Assembly (NCBI GenBank): GCA_965263035.1
Contig: OZ253580.1
Coordinates: 4,992,001-5,056,000 of the forward strand
Direction: 5' to 3'
DNA: 64,000 nt
DNA from: Acidobacteriota bacterium
Lineage (GTDB): Bacteria; Acidobacteriota; UBA6911; RPQK01; JAJDTT01
Part shown: one piece after another, positions 17,356 through 43,184 of the stretch
Layout of the letters: every line of letters starts with the position of its first letter
Position numbering within the stretch: the stretch's first letter is position 1
Made by a program: the position numbers and the translations under genes
Notes under the pieces: generated by a model
What the model saw: only the letters and a program-made list of their open reading frames with translations
Database searches by the model: none
Told to the model about the DNA's origin: nothing

Positions 17356-17374
17356 GGAGGGGCGATTTCCAATC
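17356..17374. repeat. Left att junction: left half of the split REP palindrome including the 11-bp core
   Basis: GGAGGGGCGATTTCCAATC. Joined to the right junction it restores GGGCGATT-TCC-AATCGCCC. Confidence 0.85.
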
Positions 17375-17480
17375 CCAACTGTCCCTCAGTCAATAACTAC
17401 TAAACATTAACGTTTTCAGTCATTTACCGGGTTCTTCGCCGAATCGGTAAAGTGGTTGACTCCCCATGTTTGGCGTGCTG

Positions 17481-17499
17481 AACAGGCAACAAACAGGCA
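17481..17499 (+). repeat. Putative integrase arm-type binding sites (left)
   Basis: AACAGGCAACAAACAGGCA, identical to 23499-23517. Two tandem AACAGGCA units 11 bp apart. Confidence 0.7.
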
Positions 17500-17907
17500 G
17501 CAGAATTCGCGCCTGAAGGCCAATGCACTCTTCTCATCTTCTTTTGTTCCCCTTTCGAAAATCTACCAGAGATTCGACTCATCGATCCGATGGCCAGACC
17601 CATAACCTGAATCATGGGATTTTCGGAGGCATCTTCCGAGTCAAGAGTATCTTCCCTATCCGCTGCCGTGTGGTCCCCTGGATATGGCCTGGAGATTGAA
17701 CCGATGGATTACGGTGTACCACCCCGAAGAAGCACTTTATCCGCCGCCCGGGGTTTACATGGGCAACAGCAAGCGTGCTCGGGAGAGATTCCGGGCCGCG
17801 TTGTTGGACCAGTCGCGCCTCTGCCGTAGACTCGCCAGCATCGCTCATGGTCCGCAACTCCGTAAGAGGGTATGCTATACGGAAGAGAACCCATGCAAAA
17901 CTAATTC

Positions 17908-18120
17908 ATGGCGGTCACCGTTCCAATCGGCATTGCCATCATCATGGCTACCATCGCCCTCGCCGGCCTCATCCAGGTCCAATCCCGCGCCTTCCGTTCT
18001 GAGCTTCGGGAGTCGGCCCAGCACCGCGCCGAGCTCCGGGATCGAATGGGACGGATCGAAGGGACGCTCGACGTCCTTCGAGATTCCTTCGTCCGGTCCG
18101 GTCGCGACACTGCGGGGTGA
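17908..18120 (+). CDS. Small membrane-anchored coiled-coil hypothetical protein
   Basis: N-terminal hydrophobic helix followed by heptad-like ELRDRMGRIEGTLDVL. Confidence 0.55.
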   Translation: MAVTVPIGIAIIMATIALAGLIQVQSRAFRSELRESAQHRAELRDRMGRIEGTLDVLRDSFVRSGRDTAG

Positions 18121-18537
18121 TCCACAACGCTGAACCATGGAAGAAGCGAACGGCCCCCAGCCGGTGGCGACAAGCGAGACACAAATGAGCTGGTTGCGGA
18201 GAATATGGAGCACGATAACGGTCCTGATTCGACTAAGTGACCTTGACGCACGAGTCGGAAAGCTCGATAGGCAACTCAGAGAAGCGTCCCGGGGGACTCA
18301 GGAGACTCTCAACATTGGCTCAATTGGTACGCTGGACATCGACATCGAAAACATCACCCGTGAAACGATCACTCAGCAGGCCAAATTGGAGGTAACGAGG
18401 CGTCACATCTATACATCAAACGTCGCCCATACGGGACACGCTGTCGGGTTGTCATTGGCGTTGTGCTACAGCTTTGAAGATGAACCGGAACGACTTGAGC
18501 GAGTTGCGGACCGGCTTGAAGAGTGGGCCAATAGCTA

Positions 18538-20187
18538 GTTCTCATCCAGAAAGTCGGGTTTGGGGGGATTGGGTAGCCCGAGGAAGGCCGGAGAAACTGC
18601 AATAAACCGGCTCGATGGGGGCCGAAAGCAGGAAATTCAAGTCCGTTGAGAGCCGATCCCGGATTTTGAAGACACGAGTCCCTGACGGGGCATCGGCAAT
18701 GGATTCAAGCTGCGCTTACAGCAGCAGGCGGGCCAGCACCAGCAGGTTGAAGCTGACGATCGAGAGGTACACATATTGCTGGAAGTGGGGCCAGCCCTTC
18801 CAGGTGCAGCGTCCGAGTCCGAACACTCGCTTGAGCCACGAGATGCACCCTTCGATGCCGGCCCGGAAGCGTCGCAGTTGCCGGTAGACCCAACTGGAGC
18901 GCACCATCTCAGGGACCTTCAGTCCGCGTTTCTTGGCAAAGGCGACATCCTGGACGCCTTGCTTTTTGGCCCACTCCAGATTGGAGCGGCTGGCAAAGCA
19001 TCCGTCACAACTGACCTGTCGAGGCCAACGGCCGTACAGATCATACTGGCGCCGCATCCAGGGCTGGAACTGACCGGCATCGTTAGGGTTCCCCCGCACC
19101 ACCTCAGCATCCAGCATCAGGCCGGAGACGCCGCCGGTCAGAAACAGCTTGTGCCCAAAGACCGTTTCCCGGCGCTTCTTTTTGATGATGTCGGTGTGCT
19201 CCTCAAACAAGGAGAGGACTTTCTCGGCGGCCGGAACCGTCTCTCCCCGCAGCACACGCCGCTCGGTCTGGTCGATGATCTTCTTCGTCAAATCCAAGTA
19301 ATGGCGCAGTTGACCGGCGATGACCAGACTGGGCAGGTCGGTGAACCGATCCGCTTGCCGCAGCGCCCTCTCGGCGTCATGAGCGGTCTTGCGAGCGACC
19401 TTCAACAGATCCCGATAGGCTCGCAGACGACGCTTGCCCCGGTGGTTGGCGATGTTCGCAACAGCGTCGCTTGGCCCGGCGCCGGTGATCCGAAAAGACG
19501 ATCTTGTGAGGTCGGGCCAAGCGGCGCAGCCAGCGGGTGAGGACTCGAACCGAGTCGGACAACATCTGGGAATCCCGCGGATAGGGGATGGGGCTTTCCA
19601 CGGCCGTGGCATCGGCTCGGATCTTCCGTCCCCGTTCCAGTCCCTGGCCCTCCGCCCATTGCACCAGGAGCCGGTTGATCTGCTGCCAGGTTCCGGCTTG
19701 AATCCGGCTGATGTTGTCCTGGAGGCAGGAGGCACTGGGGGTCCATTGCCAAGGGAGTCGAGCGAAGCGACGAAAGCTCTGAGAGTCGCTCCAGAGGAAC
19801 GCCAACTTGGTGTAGGGCAGCTGATGCCAGTTCTTGAGGATGGCCGCGCGCAGGACCTGCTCTGCGGAGAGACCCGGAGCCCCCTGGCCTGAACCGGCGG
19901 TGTCACACAGATCGTGTAGAACCAGACCCAGGATCGAGGGGTTGTCATCCAAGATCTTGGAAACAGCTTTCAATTCCTGGGCGAGTCGGTGACCGGGCCA
20001 GAGCCCGGAGAGCGGAAGCTGGTTTTCCCGTTTTCGACGCATTGTTCAAGCCCCCGGTTTTGTGTAAGTCATTTGGTTGCTTTTATTTAGCACCAATAGA
20101 CTACCAAACGACTATGACAGAATCGGGGCTTGAAAATGCCTCCTTAGTCCTTATTTCCCAATAACTTACGGCTTTCCGGATGAGAAC
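18538..20187 (-). mobile_element. IS element (ISNCY/IS5-like DDE), 1650 bp
   Basis: TIRs GTTCTCATCCAGAAAG / CTTTCCGGATGAGAAC with TAGCTA on both flanks. The palindromic target makes the exact ends ambiguous. Confidence 0.85.
18716..20042 (-). pseudogene. DDE transposase with a frameshift near 19460
   Basis: N-terminal half in ORF 19377-20042 (RADATAVE..I.YP.DS). C-terminal half in frame 18716-19948 (KVLSLFEEHTDII, FGHK, DGCFAS, FRAGIEG.IS.LKR). Confidence 0.85.
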
Positions 20188-20403
20188 TAGCTACACTACG
20201 CTTTGGCGGGAGACGGAAACGACTCCCGCGTTTGAGAAAATGGGATTGTCAGAGGAGTCCAAGCAGAGATTGCGTGACCAGAGGTTAGTGCATGAGATGG
20301 GAGTCCGGTCTGTGTCCGCGTGGATTCGAGGCTGGGTACGCGCTCAGCAGAAATAACGCACCGAGATCCGCGAGGATCCGCCTCGCGAAGATAGTGAGAT
20401 CCT

Positions 20404-20769
20404 TCAGAGGAACGAGGTCAGGTCTTGCCCCAACTTTCGGGCCAGTGCTTCGGCATCGTCAAAAGGCCAGAGAAGTTTCTGGTCTCCATCCCGGTCGCGT
20501 TTCTCATGCAGAACCCAGCCGCGACTTTCCAAGTCCAGGCCGGGAGGTACCATGACATGAACACCCTGCGTCTTGCGGACAAACATCTTGACCAGTTTTG
20601 CTGATTCCGATTTCGTGATGAGAGGGTAAAAAGGAGCAGGAACGTCCATGCTCACTCTCGCCTTGATGGGAGTGATCCAGACTCCCCTGCACCTTGGTGG
20701 CAGTTCTGCCCGGACAATCTTCATCAGTTCCTCCAGTTGACTGAGCACGTTGTTCCAGTCCAGTTTCAT
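20404..20769 (-). CDS. Hypothetical protein (element cargo)
   Basis: 121-aa ORF with an AAGGAGG RBS just upstream on the minus strand. Confidence 0.6.
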   Translation of the reverse strand: MKLDWNNVLSQLEELMKIVRAELPPRCRGVWITPIKARVSMDVPAPFYPLITKSESAKLVKMFVRKTQGVHVMVPPGLDLESRGWVLHEKRDRDGDQKLLWPFDDAEALARKLGQDLTSFL

Positions 20770-20849
20770 GGGGCCTCCTTACGGCTTATGATGGAGTGAA
20801 TCCGCCCGGCTCGTGATGCCTCCAGAGCCGGTGGGTCCGAGTCGCCACA

Positions 20850-21428
20850 ATGACGCTCAGCCGGGAGCCGAACTCAGGAGGGCATCATCATCTCGGTGGT
20901 CCTCCCGGCAGCATATCGCCGGCAAGGTTCCAGCTTCAAGGACCGTGGCCTCAGAACATAGAGGTGATGTACACCGCTCCGGACGCCTCGGGACTGGTCG
21001 AGCAGCTTGCCACGTTCGATTCAGGCACTGTGGATTACGATTACAACAACGTCATGATCCAAGGTCTGGTCGAATTGACCGGGAATGCTCATATCAAGAT
21101 CATTCACAATGACCCATACCATCCGAAGGTCCACTACGGAACTCCGGCTATGCTGCAAGGCATCAGGGAGCTGGCCAAGGCTTTCTTCAACACGTACAAC
21201 AAGAAGGTCGAGGTCAACGACATGAGCCTCCCAAGAGGTGGGCTGTTCGACTACAACGGCAACTGGGTGCCACCGCATCAAACGCACCGCACCGGCATAA
21301 ATGCGGACATCCAAACTCGCAACGTGAGCGAGACGGAGAGGGCGTATCTCAAGGCGAAAGGAGAGGAGCTTGGATTCAGGATGCTCCACGAAGATGATCC
21401 GCCTCATTTTCACGTCACCCTTTTGTGA
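20850..21428 (+). CDS. MepA-like (LAS family) murein endopeptidase domain protein
   Basis: VNDMSLPRGG, HQTHRTGINAD (H-x6-D) and C-terminal HFH (HxH) zinc motif. No signal peptide, possibly an N-truncated cassette. Confidence 0.75.
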   Translation: MTLSREPNSGGHHHLGGPPGSISPARFQLQGPWPQNIEVMYTAPDASGLVEQLATFDSGTVDYDYNNVMIQGLVELTGNAHIKIIHNDPYHPKVHYGTPAMLQGIRELAKAFFNTYNKKVEVNDMSLPRGGLFDYNGNWVPPHQTHRTGINADIQTRNVSETERAYLKAKGEELGFRMLHEDDPPHFHVTLL

Positions 21429-21457
21429 CTGAGAGCTGAACCGTAGGATGTGAGACT

Positions 21458-21946
21458 ATGAAACTGCTGCCGCTGTTGACACTATTACTGCTGCCGGTGC
21501 ACCAAGATGACGTCGTGCTCCTGTCACCAATGGAGTTCGAACACGCGCCCTTGGAAGTTCGCGAACAACTCACCGAAATGGGCTGCTCCATACCCCAAGT
21601 CTCCGATTTGTATGAGGAGAGAGAACACAACATCATCTCCGGTCAGTTCGCTACACCAGAGCAAACAGACTGGGCCGCGATCTGTTACAAAGACGGAAAA
21701 TCGGCAGTTGTCGTGTTGTGGGGCGGCCCGGTGAATTGCAGGTCGTGGATAAATGCTCCACGGAAAGGCTTCTGGATAGTGTTCGATCGCGTACTCTATA
21801 AATACCCGGCTTCGCGTAAGAGTCGGTATGGAGATGTTCCTGTAGTGCGAACACATGATGCAGTAAACTACGCTATCTGGGGGAGAGGAGCGATTGCTTA
21901 CTACTGCCACGAAGGAGAGTGGCTGGAGTTCATTACGTCGGACTAG
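21458..21946 (+). CDS. Secreted hypothetical protein, putative immunity partner
   Basis: N-terminal MKLLPLLTLLLLP signal-like sequence, four Cys, 29 bp downstream of the peptidase. Confidence 0.6.
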   Translation: MKLLPLLTLLLLPVHQDDVVLLSPMEFEHAPLEVREQLTEMGCSIPQVSDLYEEREHNIISGQFATPEQTDWAAICYKDGKSAVVVLWGGPVNCRSWINAPRKGFWIVFDRVLYKYPASRKSRYGDVPVVRTHDAVNYAIWGRGAIAYYCHEGEWLEFITSD

Positions 21947-21969
21947 CAACCAGCAGCAAGCAACACAAG

Positions 21970-22000
21970 AAAGGGTCGGCAGAAATGCCGGCCCTTTTTT
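21970..22000 (+). terminator. Rho-independent terminator
   Basis: AAAGGGTCGGCA-GAAA-TGCCGGCCCTTT stem followed by a T tract. Confidence 0.85.
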
Positions 22001-22242
22001 GTCTGCGTAAAACCCATAAACTCAAGGGTTTACGAGCAGGAATATGTCATGGTCCGCTGTCCGCTCGTCCCCCGTTCCGCTGCACGGTTGCATCCCCTGT
22101 CCGCTGAAACGCTGGTCGGCTATGAAAACCACCCAGTCCTCCATCAACTGCCGGCCGCGCCTCCCTTGACCGCTTAGGGGGCGTCCGTGCATTCGGCCGC
22201 CCAGTCACCCTGATCCAGGTACCCAACCGGAGGCTTTTCAGC

Positions 22243-22470
22243 GTGGCCGCCGCAGCCCAGTATCTGGGCAAGGCCATCGGCACGATTCGCAAATTGGCCG
22301 TTCTGAACGTCATCCAAGCCAGAGCCGAACTGGACACTGCCGGGCGCCGCCGCCGCGTCTTCGCACTGGAGGTCTTGAACGCCTACATCGATTCCCTGGA
22401 GCCGTGGTACGATTCGCCCCACGGCGAAGAACCCGGATCCAGAAAGGAGGAGATGCATGGGCATCTATAA
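22243..22470 (+). CDS. Excisionase-like HTH protein
   Basis: RRLFSVAAAAQYLGKAIGTIRKL resembles a Xis/HTH_17-type helix-turn-helix. Overlaps the integrase start. The true start probably lies upstream. Confidence 0.6.
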   Translation: MAAAAQYLGKAIGTIRKLAVLNVIQARAELDTAGRRRRVFALEVLNAYIDSLEPWYDSPHGEEPGSRKEEMHGHL

Positions 22471-23542
22471 GGTGAAGGATCGCCGGGGGAGGAGACGATA
22501 CGTCGTCAGCAAGTACTGGCCGAACGGATCCGGTCGGCTCCGAATGTACGCCCCCAACTACCGGAGCGCACAGGCGCTTCAAACACGAATCGAGTCCAGC
22601 ATCCTGGACGGCACCTGGAAGCGGCTCAAGCAGGAACTCGCCGGCGGGAAACGCACCATCTGGACGGTGCACAGCTTCTACAAGCGTTTTCTCGAGGAGT
22701 ATTGCAAACCTCGTATGCGCTCCTGGCGGAGCTATGAGGGTTCGTTCAAGAGCCTCAATGCCATGCTCGGGAACATTCCCCTGAAGGAGTTCCAACGCAA
22801 AGACCTGCACCGCTACGTCGCCCAGAGGAAGAAACAGGTCAAACCGGCCACGGTGAACCGTGCCATCGCCGCTATCAGCAAGCTGTTTTCCTACGCGCTG
22901 GAGTGCGGGGAAGTGGACACGCACCCGCTGGTGCGGTTTCCCAAACTGAAGGAGCCGAAGAAGGTCTTCCGGCCTTTGACGGTTCAACAGTTCCGCGACC
23001 TGGTCGAGGCGGTGGACAATCCGTACCTGCAAGCCATGATCGCGGTGATCGGCGAGACGGGGATTCGGAAAGGCGAGGCTTTGTCGCTCACCTGGAAACG
23101 GGTGGATTTGGGTCGCGGACTACTCTGGGTGGAACTCACCAAGAACGACGAGACGAGGGAGATTCCCCTGTCGAAGTACGCCACCGAATACCTGGCCGGG
23201 CTGGTTCGCTACCTGAACATCCCATACGTCTTCGTCAACAGCCGGACGGGGACGAGATGGGTGAATCCCGACAAGCCTCTGCGCCGGGCCGCCGAGAGGG
23301 TGGGGCTGAAGGTCGGATTTCACGATCTGAGGCGATTCCGCTGCAGCCACTGGTTGATGCAGGGTGTGGACGTGAGAACCGTCCAGAAGCTGATGGGTCA
23401 CTCGGCCATCAGCACGACGATGCGCTACGCGGGGTACGTCAGTTCGCATGCGCTTGCCAGCATTCGGGAGGCACAGGCTCACGAAGACTCACAAACGCAA
23501 CAGGCAACAAACAGGCAATGGGTAGGAAACAAGGGGCAATGA
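22457..23542 (+). CDS. Tyrosine integrase
   Basis: Catalytic R (TGIRKGE), K (TKN), HxxR (FHDLRR), H (LMGHS) and Y (TTMRY). SAM-like core-binding region (PATVNR). AGGAG RBS. Confidence 0.95.
   Translation: MGIYKVKDRRGRRRYVVSKYWPNGSGRLRMYAPNYRSAQALQTRIESSILDGTWKRLKQELAGGKRTIWTVHSFYKRFLEEYCKPRMRSWRSYEGSFKSLNAMLGNIPLKEFQRKDLHRYVAQRKKQVKPATVNRAIAAISKLFSYALECGEVDTHPLVRFPKLKEPKKVFRPLTVQQFRDLVEAVDNPYLQAMIAVIGETGIRKGEALSLTWKRVDLGRGLLWVELTKNDETREIPLSKYATEYLAGLVRYLNIPYVFVNSRTGTRWVNPDKPLRRAAERVGLKVGFHDLRRFRCSHWLMQGVDVRTVQKLMGHSAISTTMRYAGYVSSHALASIREAQAHEDSQTQQATNRQWVGNKGQ
23499..23517 (+). repeat. Putative integrase arm-type binding sites (right)
   Basis: Identical to 17481-17499. Lies within the 3' end of the integrase gene. 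Confidence 0.7.
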
Positions 23543-23614
23543 TTAGAGGGAATAATTGGGATAACCTGTTGAAACAAAAGGGCTGATCCCCTGTATTATC
23601 TAGACAGAGCAACG

Positions 23615-23692
23615 GATTTCCAATCGCCCATTCCTTCCCCGGTGGGCTCATGGACGCGATTTCGGAGTTCGGCGGTTGGAAACCGCCGCTCC
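23615..23692. repeat. Right att junction plus remainder of the REP pair
   Basis: Core GATTTCCAATC followed by GCCC. 23663-23692 is identical to 41693-41722. Confidence 0.85.
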
Positions 23693-40004: not shown

Positions 40005-40233
40005 GTTCGTCGTGCTCGTTCCGTGAGAGGAGAAGCGTCCTTCTCAGGGCGCACCATCATATTGGATCGTGGTCCGCTTCGCGAGCACCGCCAGGAGACC
40101 CCGGCCCTTCCGGGTTCCCTCCACCGCGCATGTTGACCGGGCTCCGGAGGTTGGATATGTTTCGCTGCAAGGATCGGTTGAAGTTCTGCCTCGAGGGTTC
40201 GGAAAAGATTCAGGTAATTCAGGAGATAATAAG

Positions 40234-41595
40234 TTGCAAATAACGAATAATAAAGAGAATAAAAGAATATTGGGTCAGAAGATGTACGACCGGGCCCGGG
40301 AGCTCATCCCCGGTGCGACGCAGCTTTACGGAAAGCGCCAGGAAATGACCGCTCCGGGGCAGTGGCCGGCATACTTCGCCCAGGCCCAGGGCTGCGAGAC
40401 CGTGGACGTGGATGGAAACCACTACCTCGACATGTCCATGGCCGGCATTGGCGCCACTCTCCTGGGATATGCTGATCCCGACGTGACCGAGGCGGTCATC
40501 CGGCGGGTGCGCAACGGTTGCATGTCTTCCTTGAATCCCCCCGATGAGGTGGAGTTGGCCGAACTGATGCTGGAACTCCACCCTTGGGCTCAGATGGTGC
40601 GGTTCGGGCGGCTTGGCGGAGAGAGCATGACCATCGCGGTGCGGATCGCCCGGGCCTATACCGGGCGGGACGCGGTGGCCTTCTGCGGCTACCACGGATG
40701 GCACGACTGGTACCTGGCCGCCAATCTTCCCGTCGACCGTAGCGAGGAGACGGTGGACCGGTTGGGCGGGGGTCACCTGATGCCGGGGCTGGAGCCGGCA
40801 GGCGTGCCCAGCGGACTGGCCGGCACGGCCATGCCGTTCACCTACAACAAGATCGAGGAGCTCCGAGCCATCGTGGACCGGCACGGCCCGAGACTGGCCG
40901 CCATCGTGATGGAGCCGACGCGCAACTACGACCCCGATCCCGGCTTTCTGGAGGAGATCCGGGAACTCGCCACCCGTTGCGGCGCCTGCCTGATCATGGA
41001 TGAGATCACCATCGGCTGGAGGCTCTGGCTGGGAGGCGCCCACCTCAAGTACGGGTTGGAGCCGGACCTGGCCGTGTTCGCCAAGACCACCGGGAACGGG
41101 CATCCCATCTCCGCGGTGGTGGGCCGGCGCGAGATCATGCAGGCGGCCCAGAACAGCTTCATCTCCAGCGCGCTCTGGACGGAGGCGGTGGGCCCCACGG
41201 CCGCCCTGGCCACCATCCGCAAGTTTCAGAGGGAGGACGTTCGCTCACACGTGGCTCGGATCGGGGAAGCGGCCAGACAGGGCCTGAAGGAGTTGGGAGA
41301 CCGGTGCGGTGTTCCCTTCGGCGCCACCGGTCATCCGGCCCTCACCTTTTATCACTTCGACCACCCCCAAGCGGCGGCTCTCCAGACTCTTTGGACCGTG
41401 CGCATGCTGGACCGGGGATTCCTCGTGGCCGGCGGCTTCTATCCCACTTTTGCCCACCAGGAGACGCACGTGGAGCAGTTCCTGGAGGCCTGCGAGCCGG
41501 TGTTCCAAGAATTGGCTGAGGCAATTCAGAAGGGAGATATCGAGCCGCGAATCGGCGGCCCGGTGAAACACACCGGGTTCCGCCGGCTGGTGTAA
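40234..41595 (+). CDS. Class III PLP aminotransferase (glutamate-1-semialdehyde aminomutase-like)
   Basis: DVDGN.YLD, GYHGWHDW, IVMEP, IMDEI..GWR, PDLAVFAK. TTG start chosen after AGGAG. Confidence 0.88.
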   Translation: MQITNNKENKRILGQKMYDRARELIPGATQLYGKRQEMTAPGQWPAYFAQAQGCETVDVDGNHYLDMSMAGIGATLLGYADPDVTEAVIRRVRNGCMSSLNPPDEVELAELMLELHPWAQMVRFGRLGGESMTIAVRIARAYTGRDAVAFCGYHGWHDWYLAANLPVDRSEETVDRLGGGHLMPGLEPAGVPSGLAGTAMPFTYNKIEELRAIVDRHGPRLAAIVMEPTRNYDPDPGFLEEIRELATRCGACLIMDEITIGWRLWLGGAHLKYGLEPDLAVFAKTTGNGHPISAVVGRREIMQAAQNSFISSALWTEAVGPTAALATIRKFQREDVRSHVARIGEAARQGLKELGDRCGVPFGATGHPALTFYHFDHPQAAALQTLWTVRMLDRGFLVAGGFYPTFAHQETHVEQFLEACEPVFQELAEAIQKGDIEPRIGGPVKHTGFRRLV

Positions 41596-41655: not shown

Positions 41656-41722
41656 GGAGGGGCGACTTCCAGTCGCCCCTCCTTGCTCCGGCCGGAGTTC
41701 GGCGGTTGGAAACCGCCGCTCC
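41656..41722. repeat. Intact inverted REP pair (REPIN-like)
   Basis: GGAGGGGCGACT-TCC-AGTCGCCCCTCC followed by the inverted unit GGCGGTTGGAAACCGCCGCTCC. Lies between convergent genes. Same family as the split site at 17356/23615. Confidence 0.85.
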
Positions 41723-41739: not shown

Positions 41740-43059
41740 TCAGCCCGCCTGGATGGTCCGCTTCGCCGGATCGAAGGTCATGCGACGTCCGTTCCAGTAG
41801 GCGTCGTTGGACATGATGCAGGCGATGGAATGGGCGTAGCCAGCGTCGACCGTGCAGTAGAGACTCTTGGGATCCTGCCGCCGGACCGCATCGAGCCAGT
41901 TGGCCATGTGGCTGACTTCGCCCGGGGCATCGGGCACCCCGACCATATCGGCCACCTTCCCCTCGGCCTTGACGCCCTTGCCCGAGAATTGCCAACCGTG
42001 GGAAGGATCGGCGTTGGGCTCCTCCTTGCCCTGTTTCCAATCCATCCCGCCGCCGGGAGAGAAGCTGCCCAGGGTGCCGTGGACCTGCGTCGCCTTGCCG
42101 TAGCCGTTGATGAGATTGGTGGAGTAGACGGCCATGAGTTTATTGCCGTCCTTCTCGTACTCGAGAGCGACTTCCAAGGTGTCCGGATTCTCTCTCCAGT
42201 CCTTATACTTGTAGATGCCGCCGTGGGCCACGGCGCTCAACGGAGTCGTCACGCCGGCCAACATGTGGGCCAGGTCGATTCCGTGAGTCATCCACTGGTC
42301 GATGATGCCGCTGGAGAAGTCCTTCCAGAGGCGGAAGCAGCGGAAGATCCTGGGATCGAAGGGGCGGTGGGGTTTCCCCATGAGCCAGCTGTTCCAATCC
42401 ACGTCGCTCTCTTTGACCATGGAGCGCTGGTCGGCTCGCCCGGCCCAACGGTAGGGACTGTAGGCGTTCCATAGGATATCCACCTTGACCACGTCGCCGA
42501 TGATTCCGTCGGCGATCATCTTGGCGGCCTGCCGGTACTTGGGCCAGGAGCGCCTCTGGGTCCCGATCTGAACGATGGTTCCGGCCTTCCTCACCGCGTC
42601 CAGGGCGTCGTTGGCCTCCTCCAGGACGTTGGACATGGGCTTCTCGCAGTAGGCGTCCTTGCCGGCTTCGGCGGCCGCCTTCAGGATCTGGGCGTGGGCG
42701 TGGTCGGGAGTCGCGATGATGACGGCATCCAGATCGGCGTCGGCCAGGATCTCTTCGTGGTGACGGTACACCTTGGGAGCCTGCCCCTGCTTTTCCGTGA
42801 CGAACTTGGAGGATTCTTCACGCCGGTAGCTCCAGAGATCGGCGACCGCCGTCAGGTGAGCGTTGAAGCGATGGTTCTGGGCGAAGAAGTTCTTGAGAAG
42901 GGACGTGCCGCGGCCGCCCGGACCTATGATTCCCACGTTGATCCGATTGTTCACGTTGCGGGCGCTGGCGATTCCGGGGAACCCGGCGACGGCCAATCCT
43001 GCCCCCACTCCAGTGGAGCGAGACAGAAATCGACGGCGGCTGATGGATGACTTGCTCAT
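41740..43059 (-). CDS. Tat-exported Gfo/Idh/MocA oxidoreductase
   Basis: SRRRFL signal, IIGPGGRG, IATPDHAH, YCEKP, QIGTQRRS, H..NWLDAVR. Confidence 0.92.
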   Translation of the reverse strand: MSKSSISRRRFLSRSTGVGAGLAVAGFPGIASARNVNNRINVGIIGPGGRGTSLLKNFFAQNHRFNAHLTAVADLWSYRREESSKFVTEKQGQAPKVYRHHEEILADADLDAVIIATPDHAHAQILKAAAEAGKDAYCEKPMSNVLEEANDALDAVRKAGTIVQIGTQRRSWPKYRQAAKMIADGIIGDVVKVDILWNAYSPYRWAGRADQRSMVKESDVDWNSWLMGKPHRPFDPRIFRCFRLWKDFSSGIIDQWMTHGIDLAHMLAGVTTPLSAVAHGGIYKYKDWRENPDTLEVALEYEKDGNKLMAVYSTNLINGYGKATQVHGTLGSFSPGGGMDWKQGKEEPNADPSHGWQFSGKGVKAEGKVADMVGVPDAPGEVSHMANWLDAVRRQDPKSLYCTVDAGYAHSIACIMSNDAYWNGRRMTFDPAKRTIQAG

Positions 43060-43184
43060 GACGACTCCTTTTTTCCGGTGCATGGCTCCCGGTCCGAGGG
43101 CGCTCGGAAACGGGAATGAGAAGATTATGGACGCCGGCCCCTGCGGTCGACTGCCGCCATATTAGCCGAATCTCCTCCGGCGGT

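Follow-up and report, generated by a model that had tools for sequence, protein, structure and literature searches.

The 64,000-nucleotide stretch analysed here (the window) comes from a 6.2-Mb Acidobacteriota genome, referred to as G000, which was compared with eight congeners (G001–G008); all genomes are metagenome assemblies from one genus of uncultured Acidobacteriota. The window carries a 6.26-kb element (17364–23625) that is bounded by an 11-bp direct repeat, GATTTCCAATC, has an intact tyrosine integrase gene at its right end, and interrupts a repetitive extragenic palindromic (REP) sequence (Table 1). The repeat occurs at exactly two positions in the window, which are the two boundaries of the element. 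The left junction reads GGAGGGGC-GATTTCCAATC-CCAACTG and the right one GCAACG-GATTTCCAATC-GCCC; therefore, removal of the segment restores a GGAG-prefixed palindrome. A 30-bp block to the right of the element (23663–23692) is identical to 41693–41722 and has seven forward and two reverse exact copies genome-wide. Read on the other strand, this block is a second palindrome of the same family, so that the insertion site is a REP doublet. It lies between convergent transporter genes, an SSF symporter (+) and a nucleoside:H+ symporter (-), while a sister site reading GGCGACTTCCAGTCGCC lies between convergent open reading frames (ORFs), 40069–41595 (+) and 41740–43083 (-); both REP sites of the window are intergenic. 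The repeat-bounded segment, the palindrome left by its deletion, the 30-bp identity and the intact sister site between convergent genes had all been described in an earlier note on this DNA and can be read directly off the letters. An exact 11-mer pair within 7 kb would be unremarkable alone, as there are 25 direct-repeat families in that stretch. The pair is significant because it completes a REP, because natural empty sites exist, and because 27 further insertions have the same anatomy. The G+C content is 53–60% within the element versus 61–65% in the flanks.

Table 1. Features of the element and of the REP sites in the window (window coordinates; IS, insertion sequence).
Feature	Position	Strand	Evidence or remark
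Left half of target REP (GGAG prefix and 5′ stem, GGAGGGGC), host DNA	17356..17363	+	Identical in uninterrupted orthologous congener sites
attL (left attachment site) copy of GATTTCCAATC: 2 bp of stem, 7-nt loop TTTCCAA (putative overlap), 2 bp of stem	17364..17374	+	
Conserved left arm, ~180 bp	17375..17552	+	blastn, 80–90% identity to sister elements
Tandem ACAGGCA repeat AACAGGCAACAAACAGGCA, candidate arm-type integrase site, left arm	17481..17499	+	Exact 19-bp repeat of 23499–23517
Two cargo ORFs, 17908–18120 (70 aa) and 18137–18538 (133 aa)	17908..18538	+	No Pfam match
Nested 1662-bp IS, DUF772 + DDE_Tnp_1 transposase in two frames	18532..20193	-	25-nt inverted repeats, 18532–18556 and 20169–20193
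Cargo ORF, 121 aa, no known family	20404..20769	-	
Cargo ORF, 192 aa, weak Peptidase_M74 (murein endopeptidase) match	20850..21428	+	PF03411, E 2e-8, 34.6 bits
Cargo ORF, 162 aa, hydrophobic N-terminus, no known family	21458..21946	+	
Excisionase-like ORF, 75 aa, overlapping the integrase start	22243..22470	+	
Tyrosine integrase, 361 aa, intact	22457..23542	+	
Right-arm copy of the tandem ACAGGCA repeat, within the 3′ end of the integrase gene	23499..23517	+	
tRNA-Arg(TCT) 5′-half relic (D-arm and 5′ anticodon-stem strand), ending at the putative crossover	23584..23614	+	
attR (right attachment site) copy of the 11-bp direct repeat	23615..23625	+	
Right half of target REP (GCCC...), spacer and inverted partner REP (23663–23692), host DNA	23626..23692	+	Runs on from the left half in congeners
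Unoccupied REP doublet of the same family, stem variant GGCGACTTCCAGTCGCC	41656..41722	+	Between convergent genes

The assignment of the gene at the right end as a tyrosine integrase, also made in the earlier note, is supported by a strong match of residues 174–325 to the catalytic domain PF00589 (E 6e-27, 94.9 bits against a cut-off of 27.1) and by a match of residues 75–148 to the SAM-like core-binding N-terminal domain PF02899 (26.1 bits against 22.3). The protein aligns with the XerC-like chain 4a8e (E 2.6e-16), and its GIRKGE, HDLRR, GHS and RY motifs are in register with the catalytic motifs of 4a8e and 5c6k. About 70 residues lie upstream of the SAM-like domain, with no Pfam arm-binding family among them at E ≤ 0.01. 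The excisionase-like ORF gave no Pfam match at the same threshold; by tblastn it is open at full length in 2 of 27 elements (the window element and L023), the others being truncated, frameshifted or stop-containing.

The interrupted palindrome belongs to an abundant family. The REP motif of the earlier note has 57 and 65 copies in the genome, and the pattern GGCGNN-TTCCA-NNCGCC occurs 154 times, as expected for the multicopy palindrome that the note had assumed; 24 of these copies are unoccupied exact matches to the insertion site. Among congeners, the pattern counts are 114–199 in four genomes and 17 in one, versus 0–1 for a reversed control pattern. An inverted partner is found within 120 bp of 31 of the 71 forward REP copies.

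Close homologues of the integrase are carried by several congeners. Near-full-length copies number 26 in G004 (88–95% identity, all in one chromosome), eight in G005 (75–95%), one in G007 (95%) and one in G003 (85%). We fetched 20 kb around each of 39 integrase copies; 35 of the fetched homologues (75–95% identical) form one clade together with the window copy. A REP half abuts the right junction in all 35 copies of this clade where the junction is visible (34 fetched copies plus the window), while the 36th (L036) runs off its contig. Thus, in the comparison of homologue boundaries that the earlier note had proposed, every close copy with a visible junction (35 of 36) has its boundary in a REP loop. 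Both ends were found in 28 of 36 copies, 27 of them by a script that uses the conserved left arm (blastn) and one, L053, by eye; the automatic repeat call for L053 was wrong and was replaced by this reading. In these 28 copies the direct repeats are 7–15 bp long, element sizes range from 2,684 to 16,565 bp, and the implied empty site is a GGAG-prefixed palindrome in every case (28/28). The flanks vary between copies, which therefore represent separate insertions. G000 also contains a decayed second integrase copy (G000:C1:4175994-4176978; 88–90% nucleotide identity) with an internal deletion and an unrelated insert. On its right it borders GGACTTTCAGTCCGCCTCC, which resembles a REP half but has a different loop, and no left end or matching repeat was found for it.

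The junctions of all elements follow a common frame. In every element the right arm ends in ...GAGCxxxGGA, the next 7 nt follow, and TCCCxAC then opens the left arm, giving GGA-7 nt-TCC, where the 7 nt are the loop of the target hairpin. The sequences TTTCCAA, TTTCTAA, TTTCTAG and CTTCCAG are found at this position in elements whose targets have REP-A stems (class A); CTGTTAG and its complement CTAACAG correspond to a single palindrome used in both orientations; TTTCCTA goes with a REP that has the stem GTGGGGGT (class D), and CTTTCCT with a further palindrome. In class D (four elements, and L053 by eye) the identity between attL and attR is exactly the 7 bp TTTCCTA. The class-A repeat variants differ from each other within the central 7 nt only, and every class-A loop variant also occurs among natural REP-A copies of G000. 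The restriction of identity to these 7 nt and the confinement of class-A variation to them point to a 7-bp overlap that coincides with the hairpin loop, and the 7 nt would then be the crossover overlap. L022, which has a class-A-type integrase, occupies a palindrome with a different stem and the same loop.

The arms that flank this frame are conserved as well. Every one of the 27 resolved elements has a CAGGCA copy in its left arm, +117 to +133 relative to the core, and 25 have both tandem copies; 26 of the 27 have an ACAGGCA copy in the right arm, -125 to -108 relative to the right end. Tandem ACAGGCA motifs about 120 bp from the core are located where arm sites would be expected, and we consider them probable arm-type sites. 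Apart from the core, the two element ends are unlike each other and lack terminal inverted repeats of the IS type. The end of the integrase gene lies about 75–80 bp from the junction in every copy displayed.

Several observations concern the REP families themselves. G004 has only 13 intact GGGGACTNNNAGTCCCC palindromes, nine of them with a GTT/AAC centre, while 16 elements sit in such sites; over half of that GGGGACTNNNAGTCCCC REP variant in G004 appears to be occupied. G005 has 222 GGGGACTNNNAGTCCCC-type palindromes with other centres. G000 encodes two Y1_Tnp genes. One of them, G000:C1:3477692-3478456, resembles genes for REP-associated tyrosine transposases (RAYTs) and has the pair GGGGACATCCTTGTCCCC and GGGGGTTRAAAACCCCC on either side. 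The GGGGAC...GTCCCC and GGGGGT...ACCCCC palindromes flanking one of the Y1_Tnp genes have the shapes of target classes E and D, and no REP-A copy lies within 1.5 kb of either Y1_Tnp gene. Having its own REPs on either side is classical for a REP-associated transposase gene.

The orthologous intergenic region was located in all eight congeners, and none of them has the element there. G007 and G006 have the two flanks of the window insertion joined through a single copy of the core, with 1–2 substitutions ~30–50 bp downstream. The palindrome is intact in G003, G002 and G005, where the downstream spacer is different; G001 and G004 have single-base variants at the orthologous palindrome, and G008 has the orthologous region without a REP. 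A public sequencing run from another study (X1) yielded a depth-56 contig with 8 differences over 575 nt that passes through 17374 directly into right-flank letters, and a second contig that begins at 23615 with left-flank letters before it. Depth in this run was 0 in most element-unique bins, and no contig spanning the whole element was listed for it. Thus, the empty site that had been predicted for related strains exists both in congeners and in an independent metagenome contig, and the insertion must have been recent and clean.

More distant relatives of the integrase are associated with tRNA genes. Four integrases with 72–85% identity (L056–L059, from G003, G010 and, in two cases, G035) adjoin a complete tRNA-Arg gene (TCT or TCG), which lies directly 3′ of the integrase in the same orientation. 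Of ten relatives at 38–53% identity, nine have a tRNA-Arg, -Thr or -Leu within ~170 bp of the integrase 3′ end. In the maximum-likelihood tree the 36 REP copies form one clade (support 100/93), whose sister is the tRNA-Arg copy L056 from the same genus (100/97), and the tree needs no more than a single tRNA-to-REP change. The right arms of L056–L059 can be aligned to REP-element right arms as far as ...GAGCAACGGA, beyond which an anticodon loop takes the place of the REP core; from this right-arm homology a crossover in the anticodon loop of L056–L059 would follow. A 10-bp left-end candidate in L056 was rejected, since no conserved left arm comes after it.

The REP elements retain a trace of this association. 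The tRNA relic of the window element matches the host tRNA-Arg(TCT) at 22 of 31 nt, in register, and the relic is present in 27 of 27 resolved elements (18–27 of 31 nt identical, in register, ending at the crossover); the homologous position in L056–L059 is a complete tRNA-Arg gene. The anticodon arm GGA-CTTCTAA-TCC and the REP variant CGA-TTTCTAA-TCG are one base apart in the central 11, so the switch needed very little change. Taken together, the tRNA-Arg neighbours of the outgroups and the tRNA relic indicate that the lineage moved from an anticodon stem-loop to REP hairpins. The earlier note had reckoned that homologous integrases consistently located at tRNA genes would make the window insertion a one-off. 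Such a location is found in distant relatives (9/10 at 38–53% and 4/4 at 72–85% identity) and not in the close clade, and it therefore tells of the origin of the element rather than against its REP targeting. The window element does not restore a tRNA gene as Islander-type islands do, and L056–L059 are located at one. In two of these loci, L057 and L059 (G010 and G035), a second integrase, ~50% identical, converges on the same tRNA-Arg from its 3′ side; that gene has two integrases of one broad family, one on each side.

The whole is best explained, with a probability that we put at about 85%, by an integrative element that targets REP hairpins by means of its own lambda-type integrase. This bears out and extends the reading of the earlier note, in which a minimal cargo cassette uses a multicopy REP family as landing sites. 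According to this model, the segment 17364–23625 would be moved by its tyrosine integrase, with a REP hairpin serving as the chromosomal attachment site. Strand exchange would take place within a 7-bp overlap that is the hairpin loop (TTTCCAA in this case), with the two stem halves acting as inverted core sites. The element's own attachment site (attP) would consist of only GGA-7 nt-TCC, between arms of ~190 bp and ~125 bp that bear the tandem ACAGGCA repeats. The clade, known from one genus of uncultured Acidobacteriota, would descend from elements integrating at the anticodon stem-loop of tRNA-Arg, through a single switch to REP hairpins resembling that stem-loop (tRNA GGA-CTTCTAA-TCC vs REP CGA-TTTCYAR-TCG), and would later have spread onto several REP families mainly through change of the 7-bp overlap. 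A multicopy target would make transposon-like accumulation possible, as in the 26 copies of one chromosome, with variable cargo. From sequence comparison we infer the cut positions, the function of the arm sites, the need for overlap homology and present-day activity, along with the mobility of the elements. A further proposal is that target choice may be set almost wholly by the 7-bp overlap together with a generic G/C-rich hairpin shape, in which case a swap of seven bases would move an element from the tRNA-Arg anticodon loop to several REP families or flip its orientation. We offer it tentatively, judging it somewhat more probably wrong than right.

The insertion could also be an accident, in which a tRNA-specific integrase misfired once into a tRNA-like sequence and REPs are not its normal target. 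The distant and intermediate relatives that adjoin tRNA genes, the tRNA-Arg relic kept in the element and the single intact copy in G000 would agree with this. The accident is nevertheless highly improbable: all 35 visible right junctions of the clade fall in REP halves and none in a tRNA, and neither the window nor the close-copy loci L002–L004, L006, L009 and L010 contain a tRNA according to ARAGORN. In addition, the attP core has shifted from the tRNA sequence to a match with the REP loop, and no integrase match lies near the host tRNA-Arg(TCT) gene. Equally improbable is the view that the integrase is a passenger on a segment moved by RecA-dependent REP–REP recombination or by a REP-associated Y1 transposase, even though repeated REPs could support homologous exchange and the genome has two Y1_Tnp genes. 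Such exchange is at odds with attL and attR that are hybrid half-sites, not whole REPs, with a duplication of only 7–15 bp, and with an integrase gene that keeps its distance from the junction while conserved arms stand at every junction and the cargo between them is unrelated among copies.

A different possibility concerns the substrate rather than the enzyme, namely that the integrase would recognise the REP hairpin in extruded or single-stranded form, as integron integrases do with attC, and not as duplex core sites. What the targets have in common is a G/C-rich stem and a 7-nt loop, not a stem sequence; in class D the identity between attP and the chromosomal site (attB) is limited to the 7-nt loop, and the palindrome of L022 combines a different stem with the same loop. 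The two-armed attP with repeated arm motifs is, however, the classical duplex layout of lambda-type systems, and weak similarity between core sites is normal for lambda-type integrases. We regard hairpin recognition as unlikely.

Some results weigh against integration into REP hairpins by a dedicated integrase, or against parts of that model. Pfam (E ≤ 0.01) shows neither an arm-binding domain in the integrase nor an excisionase family. Eight of the 36 copies yielded no left end over 19 kb (blastn gave none for L022, L024, L027, L038, L046, L054 and L055), and exact-repeat scans revealed no convincing attL for L056–L059. Classes B and C, which share one palindrome in opposite orientations, are intermixed in the integrase tree, and the model gives no explanation of this. 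No circle junction or excision product of the element is present among the contigs, which cannot show rare forms. The material consists of assemblies from a single genus, and copies within one genome are not independent. Finally, G000 has its 24 free perfect sites yet only one intact element and one decayed copy. With so many free sites and so few copies, the window element may be inactive; it is also single, bears an IS and lacks a non-coding module common among its relatives (see below).

Outside their ends the elements have little in common. Conservation among them is limited to the ~180-bp left arm and the right 1.24–1.47 kb, a block made up of the integrase gene, ~110 bp upstream of it and ~70 bp downstream; different copies have unrelated cargo between the arms. 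The 150 cargo ORFs fall into 100 clusters, and Pfam, run on the 19 largest, gave matches for 14 and none for five. Restriction and defence functions, which with leucine-rich-repeat and fn3 proteins make up most of the cargo, are represented by Type ISP, MmeI-like, Type III and Type I restriction-modification proteins, a GmrSD-Schlafen protein and an Mrr-methylase fusion. Other cargo comprises two leucine-rich-repeat (LRR) proteins, an fn3 protein, a PL14 lyase, a TctA-nuclease fusion and a PSCyt3-domain protein. No conjugation, capsid, terminase or replication (primase, polymerase, helicase) family was found in the 10 ORFs of the window element and the 19 largest cargo ORFs of its sisters, smaller ORFs being unscanned; over this range the element is, as had been suggested, free of replication, conjugation and phage genes. 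The nested IS of the window element, inserted at the 3′ end of the 133-aa cargo ORF, has three more copies in the genome at 99.5–99.6% identity and diverged copies at 81–85%.

A non-coding module of ~335 nt (L035:16880-17225, + strand) has homologues in 26 of 27 resolved sister elements, at 80–100% identity, and is missing from the window element; partial copies lie at G000:C1:2699320-2699452 and 115616-115756. An invariant nested hairpin of ~100 nt (GGACGGGAGCGACCCCCCC ... GGGGGGGTCGCTCCCGTC) and four ATTCACA motifs lie within the module. Its GC content gives no signal by codon position, Rfam has no match to it, and RNAalifold folds it at -102 kcal/mol with only 5 pairs showing compensatory change. 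Module matches outnumber integrase copies: there are 41 in G004, 37 in G005 and 14 in G001, a genome that has no integrase of this clade, and the module must therefore also travel without this integrase. Possible roles are those of an origin of transfer or replication, an operator region or an RNA. A 22-member ‘protein’ cluster in 20 elements was rejected as coding, since it has no Pfam match and no third-position GC signal (GC by phase 0.63/0.58/0.64 vs 0.45/0.79/0.58 for the integrase gene). At gathering thresholds Rfam gave no match in 7 loci, and only chance-level matches were seen in the window stretch and in one minimal element. In minimal elements an interspersed repeat of ~110 nt (L029, element positions 913–1024) lies between the module and the integrase; it matches 12 dispersed places in G000 at 75–89% identity.

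Insertion into REP palindromes, a harmless multicopy intergenic target, is characteristic of IS1397, ISKpn1 and IS621, cargo-free elements mobilised by transposases or RNA-guided DEDD recombinases; to our knowledge, REP targeting is known for insertion sequences only. Our element resembles them in its target. It differs in having a tyrosine integrase of the heterobivalent type, long arms and 1.3–15 kb of cargo, and the DDE gene inside it belongs to a separate, nested IS. Tyrosine recombinases also act on short palindromic sites (hairpin or dif-based) in integron attC recombination and in Xer-exploiting elements. The element differs from the latter in having an integrase gene of its own instead of borrowing XerCD, and from attC recombination in having arms and arm repeats, which point to a lambda-type reaction on duplex DNA. 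No report of tyrosine-integrase integration into REPs was found in the literature searched, with subscription journals and supplements outside its coverage.

Among genomic islands, integration in the anticodon loop with symmetric flanks from the stem halves is a recognised tRNA sublocation in Williams' scheme (bioRxiv 10.1101/2020.11.02.365908). The same preprint cites ICEAfe1, for which 19 bp around the anticodon loop sufficed, and describes an arg2 island that integrates upstream of the tRNA, all other islands there being downstream (bioRxiv 10.1101/2020.11.02.365908). Compared with such anticodon-loop islands as described there, the element likewise has a tyrosine integrase beside the junction, a putative crossover in a 7-nt loop and symmetric stem halves. 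Like tRNA islands, it has its nearest relatives at tRNA-Arg and keeps a tRNA relic; this relic is the 5′ half of the tRNA, and the integrase and the tRNA are co-oriented in the tRNA-adjacent relatives. In contrast to tRNA islands, its target is a non-coding multicopy palindrome, with nothing to restore and many sites. The nearest match in lifestyle is the tycheposons of Prochlorococcus, small cargo elements with a tyrosine recombinase as their hallmark, whose integrases cluster by target (bioRxiv 10.1101/2020.12.28.424599). That preprint lists seven tRNA or tmRNA targets, including tRNA-Arg(TCT), an average of 1–2 elements per genome, usually a replication module, and cargo that includes defence and niche genes (bioRxiv 10.1101/2020.12.28.424599). 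Relative to this description, our elements target REPs, reach up to 26 per genome and show no replication family among the scanned ORFs. New in our elements are the target and what follows from it; their chemistry is ordinary.

If targeting is indeed set by the overlap, the integrase would be naturally reprogrammable, with hundreds of landing pads per genome, and the elements would behave like cargo transposons that multiply as parasites of a second selfish system, REP/RAYT. Since variation is restricted to the 7-nt overlap, specificity may evolve by a simple route, which could be copied for genome engineering. Restriction-modification, defence, LRR and fn3 genes would be carried between strains of an uncultured genus by elements that have no conjugation or phage family of their own among the scanned ORFs, raising the question of how these pass from cell to cell. 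The clade also represents a natural experiment on the preference of integrases for tRNA genes, since it left tRNA-Arg for unrelated sequences that have only the stem-loop geometry and a similar 7-nt loop in common with it, which lends support to the view that what is recognised is symmetry around a loop. REP hairpins would constitute a new class of attachment site for tyrosine integrases, one whose multicopy nature lets a site-specific element multiply within a genome.

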